Sequence record: DRR378314_1459
Direction: 5' to 3' (one strand)
DNA: 35,509 nt
Below are positions 9,705-23,567 of the stretch, piece after piece. A program made the translations under genes and the position numbers. Positions within the stretch are counted from its first letter, which is position 1; each line of letters starts with the position of its first letter. A model generated the notes under the pieces. That model searched no databases. It had not been told where the DNA came from and saw only the letters and a list, made by a program, of their open reading frames with translations.

Positions 9705-11786
9705 ATGGCCAAGAAGGCAGCCAAGAGCGACCGGAAAACCGTTAAAGGAAATGGCGGAGAAAACCACCAGACCGCCGGGGGCGAAGTGCCCACCCTGACC
9801 ACCAAGCAGGGCGTGCCGGTGGCCGACGACCAGAACACCCTCACCGTCGGCGAGCGCGGCCCCGCCGCCCTGGAAGACTTCCACTTTCGCGAGAAACTGT
9901 TCCACTTCGATCATGAGCGCATTCCCGAGCGCGTCGTGCACGCTCGCGGGTTCGCGGCGCACGGCTACTTCGAGAACTACGCGCCGCTGGACAAACTGAC
10001 CCGCGCCGGATTGTTCCAAAAAAAGGGCCAGCGCACGCCGGCGTTCGTGCGTTTTTCCACGGTGGCCGGCAATAAGGGCTCCGGGGATCTGGCGCGCGAC
10101 GTGCGCGGCTTCGCCGTAAAGCTGTACACCGAGGAAGGCAACTGGGACATCGTCGGCAACAACATTCCGGTGTTCTTCATCCAGGACGCGATGAAGTTCC
10201 CGGACCTGATCCACGCCGCCAAGCAGGAACCGGACCGGGGCTTTCCCCAGGCGCAGACCGCCCATGACAATTTCTGGGATTTCATCTCCCTGACGCCGGA
10301 AAGCATGCACATGGTCATGTGGATTATGTCCGACCGCACCATCCCGCGTTCGCTGCGTTTCATGGAAGGGTTCGGCGTGCACAGCTTCCGCATGGTCAAC
10401 GCCAAGGGCGAGTCCACCTTCGTGAAATTCCACTGGAAGCCCAAACAGGGCATGCAGTCGGTGGTCTGGAACGAAGCTCTGAAAATCAACGGCGCCGATC
10501 CGGATTTCCATCGCCGGGACATGTGGGGCGCGATCGAATCCGGCGACTACCCGGAGTGGGAACTGGGCCTGCAGATTTTCGACGAAAAGTTCGCTGAAAA
10601 ATTCGATTTCGACGTGCTCGACCCCACCAAGATCATTCCCGAGGAAGAAGTGCCGGTGACCCCGGTGGGCCGCCTGGTACTGAACCGCAACGTGGACAAC
10701 TTTTTCGCCGAAACCGAGCAGGTGGCCTTCTGTACGCAGAACATCGTGCCGGGCATTGATTTCACCAATGATCCGCTGCTGCAAGGCCGCAACTTTTCCT
10801 ACCTGGATACCCAGCTCAAGCGTCTCGGCGGCCCCAACTTCACCCATATTCCGATCAACGCGCCCAAGTGCCCCTATCACACCCTGCAGCAGGACGGGCA
10901 CATGGCGATGGAGAACCCCAAAGGCCGCGCCAACTACGAGCCCAATTCCTGGGGCGGTGCCGAAGGCGGCCCGCGCGAAAACCCGCAGCGCGGTTTCCAC
11001 AGCTACCCGGCCGAGGAAGCGGGCACCAAGCAGCGCCTGCGCCCGGAAAGCTTTTCCGACCATTACAGCCAGGCCCGTCAGTTCTTTATCAGCCAGACCG
11101 AGGTGGAACAGGACCACATCACCGACGCCCTGGTGTTCGAACTGAGCAAGGTGGACACCGTGGCGATTCGCGCGCGCATGGTGTCGCACCTGCGCAACAT
11201 CGACGAAGACCTGGCCAAGGGCGTGGCCAAGGGTCTGCGGCTGAGTCCGCTGCCGCGCGCCGTCGACGCCGCGCGGCCCACCCGCCAGGACCTGAAGGCG
11301 TCGCCGGCACTGAGCATTCTGCTTAACCAGCCGGAAACCTTCTCCGGCCGCAAGATCGGCGCACTGGTCAGCGACGGCGCCGACGCCGCCCTGCTCACCG
11401 CGCTGGAGAAAGCGGCCAAGAAAGAAGGCGCCAAGGTGGCCTATGTGGCGGCCTCCGTGGGCGGCGTGAAACTCAGCGACGGCAGCTGGCTGGAAGCCGA
11501 CGAAAAAATCGACGGCGGTCCCTCGGTGGTGTTCGACGCGGTGGCGCTGGTGCTCTCGGAAAAGGGCGCCCGCGAACTGGCGGCGATGCCCCCGGCCCGC
11601 GACTTCGTCAGCGACGCGCTGGCGCACAAGAAGTTCATCGGCTTCACCGAGGAAGCGGTGGCACTGCTCGGCCTGTCGGGCCCGGACGACGCCGGCGCGG
11701 AAGGGCTGGTGCCGCTGGACAAGGCCGGCGACGCCGCCCGCTTCCTGACCCTGTGCCGGAACCTGCGTTGCTGGACCCGGGCCTGA
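9705..11786 (+). CDS. katE: Large-subunit monofunctional catalase (HPII type) with C-terminal DJ-1/PfpI-like domain
   Basis: [24 protein letters not shown], proximal [10 protein letters not shown]-terminal [28 protein letters not shown]. Confidence 0.96.
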
Positions 11787-11789
11787 CCC

Positions 11790-12455
11790 GTGCCGCGTAT
11801 TTTCAGGCCCAGGGCCAATGCCCTGGCCTGGATGGCGCTGATTCTGGCGTTCGCGCTGGTGGTGGTGATGGTGGCGCTGGGCGCCTATTACTTCCAGTCG
11901 CCCTACTACAGCGGCGTTGACCGAACGCCGGCTCAGCCGGTGCCGTTCAGCCACAAGCATCATGTCGGCGAGCTGGGTCTGGATTGCCGTTACTGCCATA
12001 CCTCCGTGCAGCAATCCTCGTTCGCGGGGGTACCGGAGAGCGAAATCTGCATGACCTGCCATTCGCAGCTCTGGACCAACGCCGACATGCTCGCGCCGGT
12101 TCGCGACAGCCTGCGTGACGACAAGCCCCTGCGCTGGCGGCGGGTCCATGACCTGCCCGACTACGTGCGCTTCGATCACAGCGCCCACGTCAATAACGGG
12201 GTGCCCTGCGAAGCCTGCCACGGCCGGGTCGACCGAATGCCGCTGACCACGCAGAAAAAAACCCTGTTCATGCAGTTCTGCCTCGACTGCCACCGCAATC
12301 CCGCGCCCCGCCTGCGGCCGCCCGACGCGGTCTTCGAGATGGGCTGGGAAGCCCGGCGAGGCGTCGACCGCCAGCAACTGGGTGAGCGTCTGATGGCGCG
12401 TTACCACACGCCCTCCACCGAGCGTTTGACGGACTGCAGCCTATGTCATCAATAA
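11790..12455 (+). CDS. actA: Alternative complex III subunit A, membrane-anchored pentaheme cytochrome c
   Basis: N-terminal TM; QPVPFSHKHH; five CxxCH (CRYCH, CMTCH, CEACH, CLDCH, CSLCH). Confidence 0.92.
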   Translation: MPRIFRPRANALAWMALILAFALVVVMVALGAYYFQSPYYSGVDRTPAQPVPFSHKHHVGELGLDCRYCHTSVQQSSFAGVPESEICMTCHSQLWTNADMLAPVRDSLRDDKPLRWRRVHDLPDYVRFDHSAHVNNGVPCEACHGRVDRMPLTTQKKTLFMQFCLDCHRNPAPRLRPPDAVFEMGWEARRGVDRQQLGERLMARYHTPSTERLTDCSLCHQ

Positions 12456-22634: not shown

Positions 22635-23277
22635 CCAAACCACGGTGATCGTTGCCCACCAGTTCGAAACGCTGGAGCAGCAATTCGACGCCGACCTGCT
22701 GGGCATGTGGCTGTTCCTGGTCACCGAGGCGCTGCTGTTCTCCGGTGCCTTCCTGGCACTGGCCGTGTACTACCACCAGTATTACGACACCTTCTCGGCG
22801 GCGGCCCGCGAGCTGCACTGGCTGCTGGCCGGTTTCAACAGCGTGATCCTGCTGGCCAGCGGCCTGGCGGTGGCGCTTGCCGAGCAGGCCGCGGACCAAC
22901 ACCGGCGCCGGCTCACCCTGTGGTGGCTGAGCGCCACCATCGCCCTGGGCGTGGCCTTCCTGGGCCTGAAGGGCTACGAGTACTACATGGAATACCGCGC
23001 CGGCCTGGTCCCCTTTCTGGATCAGCCGTTCGCGTTTTCCGGGCCGGACCCGCACAACGCCATGTTGTTCTATAACTTCTATTTCGCGATCACCGGCCTG
23101 CACGCGCTGCATATGATCATCGGCCTGATGGTACTGCTGGTCATGCTGGTGCTGACGTACCGTTGGCGCGAGGGCGCGCGGGTCGCGCGCCAGGTGCGCA
23201 TCGCCGGCCTGTACTGGGCGTTCGTGGATATCGTCTGGGTGCTGGTGTACTGCAGCCTTTATTTGCTTGGCCGTTAG
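22618..23277 (+). CDS. coxC: Cytochrome c oxidase subunit III
   Basis: [36 protein letters not shown]. Confidence 0.93.
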
Positions 23278-23285
23278 GGGGCGCC

Positions 23286-23567
23286 ATGACCGACGATAAC
23301 GAAACCCGGGTTCGTCACCGCTTTGTCGGCCTTTATGTTCTGTTGCTCGGTTTGCTGGGCGCGAACATGGCCGGCACCCTGATCGACGCCGGCGGGCTGG
23401 CGATACCGATTCGGCTTTCGGTGGCCGCCGTGATGGTGGTGGTGATCGCCACCTCCTTCATGCGGCTCCGACAAAGCAGCGCACTGGTGCAGGTGGTGGC
23501 GGTGATGAGCCTGCTCTGGATCATGTTCCTGTTCGTGCTCACCTTCGCCGATTTTCTCACCCGCTAG
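23286..23567 (+). CDS. caa3-type oxidase subunit IV family protein
   Basis: ATG 23286; 93 aa, 3 TMs, SFMRL and C-terminal LTFADFLTR. Confidence 0.75.
   Translation: MTDDNETRVRHRFVGLYVLLLGLLGANMAGTLIDAGGLAIPIRLSVAAVMVVVIATSFMRLRQSSALVQVVAVMSLLWIMFLFVLTFADFLTR

Follow-up and report, generated by a model that had tools for sequence, protein, structure and literature searches.

A catalase gene directly upstream of an alternative complex III-caa3 oxidase gene cluster in Alloalcanivorax

Gene content of the katE-act-cox cluster

The window analysed here is the whole 35,509-nucleotide stretch DRR378314_1459. The system in question is a run of 13 co-directional genes (9705-23567) that begins with the catalase gene katE and continues, through the genes of alternative complex III (ACIII) and of a caa3-type haem-copper oxidase, to coxD (Table 1). 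A sequence-only reading had described these genes as one tight operon with sodC transcribed divergently from katE, and the gene order and spacing so described are confirmed. All 12 junctions between katE and coxD are on the same strand and consist of overlaps or of gaps of 8 nt or less: in order, a gap of 3; overlaps of 13, 4, 8, 4, 4, 4 and 4; a gap of 3; overlaps of 4 and 17; and a gap of 8.

By all sequence criteria examined, the cluster is an ACIII (ActABCDEF) joined to a caa3 oxidase, and the quinol:cytochrome c oxidoreductase activity of the ACIII is predicted from its genes. ActA, homologues of which were found in 582 stretches, has an N-terminal transmembrane (TM) segment and CXXCH motifs at residues 66, 87, 140, 164 and 216. 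ActB contains a QrcB-like region (117-485), a QrcC-like region (754-978) and the twin-arginine translocation (TAT)-variant domain TIGR04519 (27-66) as recognised by NCBIfam, with Pfam Fer4 domains at 754-872. The Pfam search gave no match for ActF, and BLASTP found no significant similarity between ActC and ActF; ActF does match the solved chains 6LOD_F (E 6.9e-43), 6F0K_F (E 2.9e-39) and 6BTM_F (E 1.4e-14). The 122-aa protein in the ActG position is 58-59% identical in two related genomes (G031 and G035). It gave no Pfam or NCBIfam match, and its best ActG match, 8K9E_G, was non-significant (E 0.69). The cluster is without a recognisable ActG or ActH homologue.

Among the oxidase subunits, CoxB scores 162.7 bits against TIGR02866, which exceeds the cut-off of 147.7, and CoxA reaches 665.4 against TIGR02891, just under the cut-off of 670.75 despite clear family membership. 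In CoxA the motif YSHPAVY, with YS replacing the D-channel Glu, is what we take to mark an A2-type oxidase. The ACIII-bearing genomes of the genus also encode cytochrome b (bc1) and have 3-5 COX1 matches each, and because bc1 and several haem-copper oxidases are present, ACIII-caa3 is an additional branch of the respiratory chain.

The predicted katE product is a large-subunit HPII-type catalase with the core, the C-terminal extra domain and the catalytic residues. Its NCBIfam HPII equivalog score of 922 lies under the cut-off of 1102 despite clear family membership. Homology to E. coli HPII extends over the full length (residues 16-692 align with residues 66-744 of the HPII structures, E ~1e-213), and the contexts of the catalytic His, Asn and Tyr are intact (RVVHARG, VGNN and FSYLDTQ). 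Unlike HPII, the KatE of the window has an N-terminus that is shorter by ~50 residues. E. coli katE is monocistronic and RpoS-dependent, whereas katE in the window lacks a terminator and is followed without a break by 12 genes of respiration.

According to passages of a study of the Rhodothermus marinus complex (PMC5928083), genes for an oxygen reductase often come directly after an ACIII cluster, and the window resembles the ACIII-caa3 system described there (6F0K). In both, actABCDEF precede the oxygen-reductase genes, subunit II has a cytochrome c domain and the monohaem ActE is placed to donate electrons to the oxidase. Unlike the R. marinus cluster, that of the window begins 3 nt after a catalase gene without an upstream region of its own, has SCO and small TM genes between act and cox, and belongs to a gammaproteobacterium that also carries bc1. 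The ACIII-aa3 supercomplex of Flavobacterium johnsoniae (6BTM) belongs to the same complex family, as reflected in the ActF match; set against it, the ActA of the window has five haem motifs and CoxB keeps a cytochrome c domain of its own. The order of ACIII genes followed by oxidase genes is already known, and the attachment to a catalase gene is new.

Table 1. Features of the katE-act-cox locus, its surroundings and related loci (window positions unless a locus is named)
Feature	Position	Strand	Description
sodC	8786-9316	-	periplasmic Cu,Zn superoxide dismutase with signal peptide; Pfam Sod_Cu E 1.4e-33
sodC-katE divergent control region	9317-9704		TTGTGA 9636-9641, 18 nt, C-TAGGCT 9660-9665; Shine-Dalgarno AGGAGG 9695-9700
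katE	9705-11786	+	HPII-type monofunctional catalase, large-subunit, 693 aa, predicted cytoplasmic; Pfam Catalase E 1.3e-181 and Catalase-rel
katE-actA junction	11784-11792	+	TGA stop, CCC spacer, GTG start
actA	11790-12455	+	membrane-anchored pentahaem cytochrome c, GTG start; five CXXCH; Pfam Cytochrome_C7
actB	12443-15436	+	fused B1-B2: molybdopterin-like and Fe-S domains, TAT-type leader
actC	15433-16794	+	NrfD-family quinol-binding membrane subunit; Pfam NrfD E 4.1e-20
actD	16787-17317	+	Pfam ActD E 3.9e-52
actE	17314-17853	+	monohaem lipoprotein cytochrome c; CXXCH at residue 82, lipobox LLCGC; Pfam Cytochrome_CBB3
actF	17850-18908	+	second membrane subunit, from matches to solved ActF chains
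small single-TM open reading frame (ORF), 122 aa	18905-19273	+	ActG position, no family assigned
sco	19270-20076	+	SCO1/SenC copper chaperone; Pfam SCO1-SenC E 1.3e-10; CPNLC motif
coxB	20080-21060	+	oxidase subunit II with fused cytochrome c domain (caa3 type); CuA motif, CXXCH at 239
coxA	21057-22634	+	haem-copper oxidase subunit I; Pfam COX1 E 1.4e-143; FYSHPAVY motif
coxC	22618-23277	+	oxidase subunit III; Pfam COX3 E 8.3e-15
coxD	23286-23567	+	caa3 subunit IV; TIGR02229 caa3_sub_IV 43.7 bits, cut-off 37.25
segment replaced in ACIII-less relatives	11785-25308		act-cox and convergent Glu_synthase-domain gene; a 0.77-kb COX3-family gene in its place in L089-L091 (blastn)
COX3-family gene	L089 3038-3712	-	
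cox3-like ORF of G039	L173 3427-4170	+	
possible subunit-IV-like ORF of G039	L173 4101-4469	+	
ISL3 element, transposase	25518-26807		
ISL3 element, lspA	26829-27341		
ISL3 element, CDF cation-efflux gene	27345-28241		with HMA domain
ISL3 element, merR-family gene	28322-28744		
147-aa ORF	28868-29311	+	strong Shine-Dalgarno sequence; no Pfam or NCBIfam match

The katE-actA junction and its signals

The junction reads TGA-CCC-GTG, which confirms that the katE stop lies 3 nt before the actA start. This GTG is likely the true start of actA because the N-terminal pattern that follows from it, M/V-[PA]-[QR]-[ILV]-F...AN, is conserved across phyla, with ATG or GTG at that position in 51 of the 52 loci inspected. 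The sequence-only reading had also pointed out that actA is without a clear Shine-Dalgarno (SD) sequence. The calculated SD duplex is indeed weak for actA (-4.0 kcal/mol) and for actB (-3.2), as compared to -6.5 to -11.6 for ten other act and cox genes and -10.3 for katE. Yet this is typical of actA elsewhere: outside the genus the median is -4.75 kcal/mol, and only 8% of 50 loci reach -8. Because a weak SD is general among actA genes, it adds little to the case for coupling with katE.

In agreement with the earlier claim, a terminator scan of positions 8600-13000 found none at the junction; its 4 weak sites compare with 4.1 expected from shuffled sequences. Given a 3-nt spacer and no terminator, transcription of katE would have to run into actA, and since none of the eleven junctions that follow has a gap above 8 nt, catalase and ACIII-caa3 are expected to be at least partly co-expressed.

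Upstream of katE, the intergenic blocks TTGTGA-18 nt-C-TAGGCT and the SD are invariant in all 12 aligned genomes. Since they are identical in genomes with and without ACIII, the control region appears not to have been retuned. The TTGTGA/C-TAGGCT element may be a sigma-S-type promoter. A consensus promoter scan returned 0 sites in 8600-13000 and 0 in the A. mobilis junction, and it is evidently insensitive here because it also missed this conserved katE element. The upstream block TTTTTACGTTCC was considered as a regulon motif and rejected: G001, G038 and G035 have it nowhere but at this locus, G031 lacks it, and G027 has 3 unrelated matches. In some genomes the same intergenic region carries a perfect palindrome-like insertion of ~57 nt (REP- or MITE-like, that is, resembling a repetitive extragenic palindrome or a miniature inverted-repeat transposable element), complete in G034 and apparently partial in G041; it is absent from the window and the other aligned genomes.

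The adjacency could be without regulatory consequence if the act-cox genes had their own promoter in the 3' part of katE, or if katE transcripts rarely extended beyond it. The tight junction would then merely mark the recombination site of an ACIII-caa3 island. We consider this doubtful. A modest dip in third-position diversity would fit such a promoter (0.17-0.18 at katE codons 601-630, against a gene mean of 0.27, and 0.19 in the last 20 codons among the ACIII-bearing genomes), but the dip is small and similar ones occur elsewhere in katE. Furthermore, in a 9-sequence alignment the final 360 nt of katE have an evenly high GC content and contain no conserved AT-rich -10-like block, the promoter scan gave no match there, and a 3-nt spacer devoid of a terminator would make read-through from katE unavoidable in any case. 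Synonymous sites near the end of katE gave no clear signal of a promoter within the gene, and this candidate was set aside; an act promoter in this part of the gene is not clearly indicated by these alignments.

Distribution of the adjacency and variability of the locus

ActA is present in 8 of 19 Alloalcanivorax genomes and in 0 of 51 genomes from the other 8 genera of the family. In each of the eight ACIII-bearing genomes the gene immediately before actA encodes a KatE orthologue (80-100% identical), and sodC is divergent; sodC also adjoins katE in all 11 related contigs. The adjacency is therefore not a peculiarity of one strain, and it spans ~20% KatE divergence. The spacer is 3 nt long in seven of the eight (CCC, CCA or CCG, with substitutions only and no change of length), and in these seven actA starts with ATG in four and, as in the window, with GTG in three. 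The identities of ActA and KatE drop in parallel across genomes (83/82, 78/80 and 77/80%), which fits co-inheritance. The closest ActA relatives are those of Alloalcanivorax mobilis (83%) and A. marinus (78%). Among the genomes compared, G001 is nearest to the window, with which it has 85% of sampled words in common. The twelve genes that follow katE in the window, and the convergent Glu_synthase-domain gene beyond them, recur in both G031 (A. mobilis) and G035.

No pairing of katE with actA was seen beyond the genus in 78 other ActA loci (8 with less than 2.2 kb upstream), in 81 KatE loci of other taxa from many phyla at 53-74% identity (4 with less than 0.7 kb downstream), or in 38 other ACIII loci of gammaproteobacteria, of which 32 include 3.6 kb or more ahead of actA. 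For the last set, 400 gammaproteobacterial genomes were sampled evenly, and ActD exceeded the cut-off in 39; the three sets overlap partly and are not to be summed. The pairing was thus seen only in Alloalcanivorax, with no recurrence in independent lineages. The nearest loci outside the genus, L003 and L004 from soil gammaproteobacterial metagenome-assembled genomes, encode an ActA that is 57-60% identical and has the same N-terminus and a weak SD. In these, unlike in the window, actA is the first gene, with divergent upstream genes across an intergenic region of ~165-190 nt and no catalase or sodC. A catalase-headed ACIII operon was likewise not found in the literature, judging by titles and abstracts, in keeping with the earlier statement that no characterised example is known.

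Two members of the genus depart from the common arrangement. In A. mobilis the katE-actA spacer is 111 nt long and contains a terminator-like 10-bp GC hairpin (-20.3 kcal/mol) followed by UUCUUUU, with ~40 nt from the hairpin to the actA ATG. Transcription of act in this species would have to come from upstream of or across the hairpin, which is a point in favour of an adjacency without regulatory consequence. In G034 (L083, G034:C1) an in-frame deletion, possibly an assembly artefact, removes from KatE 47 highly conserved residues of the core (299-345 in the numbering of the window), and behind this katE the 3-nt junction (ATG start) and the act genes are intact.

Three related contigs (G033:C183, G037:C30 and G036:C184) carry the protease gene, sodC and katE (KatE 94-97% identical) without act genes. 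Their homology to the window ends at 11779-11784, within the katE stop (TAG there, TGA in the window), and resumes at 25309-25459 or ~28833-29400 (blastn, L089-L091). The junction thus coincides with a recombination breakpoint relative to the ACIII-less alleles, which again suits the reading of the adjacency as a mere recombination mark. The 224-aa COX3-family protein encoded in place of the act-cox segment is 38% identical to the CoxC of the window. A further genome, G039, has the order protease, sodC, cox3-like gene, possible cox4-like gene and a gltS-like gene 79% identical to that of the window, with no katE. We rejected the COX3-like genes as recent deletion remnants of the cluster: their identity with CoxC and among themselves is only 35-38%, whereas the flanking genes are 71-97% identical. 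A search for relatives of the orphan COX3-like gene returned only 2 near-identical loci.

The distance from the protease gene to rmuC varies from ~0.3 kb in G027 and G042 to 7-8 kb in G039, G028 and G030. Judged by these contigs, the site between the trypsin-like protease gene and rmuC is a variable hotspot. When the KatE tree is rooted on four outgroups, A. mobilis is the first to diverge (support 89/84) and G029 together with G035 the next; a clade of 9 sequences (100/99) contains the three without ACIII, which are placed within those that have it. Because of this nesting, the absence of ACIII in the three relatives looks secondary or due to allele replacement. With A. mobilis basal, either the 3-nt gap or the 111-nt spacer could be ancestral. 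The assembly of G033 contains both an ACIII-bearing allele (C127, ActA 100% identical to that of the window) and the ACIII-less one (C183, katE 97%); with 3% contamination, it probably combines two strains that occur together and carry different alleles of the locus.

The window as a whole is GC-rich. Third-position GC content (GC3) is 0.84 in katE, 0.82-0.93 in act/cox and 0.76-0.90 in neighbouring genes, so that it does not change abruptly where katE meets act. The possibility that katE is a foreign insertion, raised by its lower GC content (0.60-0.64 against ~0.70), was rejected because its GC3 matches that of act/cox and the neighbours.

Further downstream, coxD and the convergent gene for a Glu_synthase-domain membrane protein (ORF 23581-25419, true start likely later) end 13 nt apart, which leaves no space for terminators; this coxD-side convergent pair is kept in G031, G035 and G039. 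An ISL3-family element occupies 25460-28832 and is absent from L089-L091. It presumably resembles ISPpu12-type elements, and its passenger genes are the only ones with deviant GC3 (0.58-0.69). The 147-aa ORF beyond it adjoins rmuC in related contigs and is cut off in the window from its usual upstream DNA by the element.

Possible meanings of the linkage

The sequence-only reading had proposed a dedicated stress respiration module coupled to the removal of reactive oxygen species (ROS). In this proposal an ACIII-caa3 placed on a catalase promoter beside sodC would provide a route of quinol oxidation alternative to bc1 in times of oxidative or stationary-phase stress, made together with the enzymes that remove H2O2 and superoxide. 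Selection would then maintain the linkage. The constancy of the arrangement speaks for such a module: the 3-nt spacing persists in seven of eight genomes although bases of the spacer and of the start codon have changed, ACIII in the genus always occurs with katE, and the divergent sodC is conserved. The presence of bc1 and other oxidases makes ACIII-caa3 optional, so that it could be condition-specific, and a COX3-family gene follows katE or sodC even in the ACIII-less relatives. ACIII moreover has a single quinol site and no double site of the Q-cycle type, as stated in passages of PMC5928083.

However, the proposal as made is not supported, and we regard a selected module as unlikely. The linkage is one inherited event in one genus, effectively a sample of one, and is absent from all three sets of loci elsewhere. 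Close relatives have dropped or replaced ACIII at a hotspot and yet kept sodC-katE with an identical control region. In addition, A. mobilis has the terminator-like hairpin with its UUCUUUU tract between katE and actA, and in G034 the ACIII sits behind a katE lacking 47 core residues. Finally, catalase is expected to be cytoplasmic and O2 diffuses freely, so respiring the O2 derived from catalase would need no linkage of the genes. An equal or better fit is given by the other possibility named in the sequence-only reading, in which chance brought the act genes under the promoter of katE.

A more specific version of the idea is adaptive fusion. Stress would shift quinol oxidation from the semiquinone-forming Q-cycle of bc1 to the single quinol site of an ACIII directly feeding its dedicated caa3 oxidase. 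Respiration and ROS removal would form one regulon, with sodC divergent from the shared control region. Translation of actA would be set by re-initiation of ribosomes that have finished katE, and what is left of the link in relatives without ACIII would be their COX3-family genes, in reduced form. We think this quite improbable.

The explanation that we favour, with moderate confidence, is that a standard ACIII-caa3 operon was joined to katE by history and is passively co-transcribed, and that it is not a purpose-built ROS device. An accessory ACIII and caa3 (A2-type) branch with its SCO gene would have joined the 3' end of katE in one Alloalcanivorax subclade. The joining may have been a single event, whether a fusion, an insertion or the loss of a spacer, at the recombination-prone protease-rmuC site of an ancestral Alloalcanivorax. 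RNA polymerase starting at the conserved katE promoter would continue into actA and probably as far as coxD, which would bring catalase and ACIII-caa3 together under stationary-phase or oxidative-stress control, as for katE of E. coli. Translation of actA would begin at its weak, SD-less start, possibly through re-initiation by ribosomes finishing katE. The linkage would have been inherited and tolerated, with the respiratory genes as passengers on katE transcription.

Several points weigh against this explanation of passive co-transcription. The retention of the 3-nt junction through ~20% KatE divergence could reflect selection for linkage, and so could the constant presence of katE wherever the genus has ACIII (8/8). 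The COX3-family gene that lies 66 nt after katE in the ACIII-less relatives is an association of ROS defence with an oxidase-like gene that passive history leaves unexplained. The possibility of an act promoter within the 3' end of katE would also count against it. Contigs from RNA libraries do span the junction (X2, 11335-12988; X3, 9363-12626; X6, 11728-12492), but the same libraries span divergent and convergent boundaries, so DNA carry-over is possible; sodC, the intergenic region between the divergent genes and the convergent gene downstream are all covered just as evenly. Four RNA libraries were available, as contigs only, and no junction-spanning contig was among the X4 pieces listed.

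The conditions under which ACIII is used in organisms that also carry bc1 are poorly understood. In Alloalcanivorax, a genus of marine oil-degrading bacteria, the gene order predicts that the ACIII-caa3 branch tracks the regulation of catalase, which is a testable statement on when this branch is switched on. The genus offers natural controls in A. marinus R8-12 with its 3-nt junction, A. mobilis MT13131 with its 111-nt hairpin spacer, the ACIII-less relatives and the genome with the in-frame katE deletion. If the link is functional, it would be a rare case in which the choice of respiratory chain is tied directly to ROS defence. If it is not, the locus would be a clear example of operon growth through fusion at a genomic hotspot.

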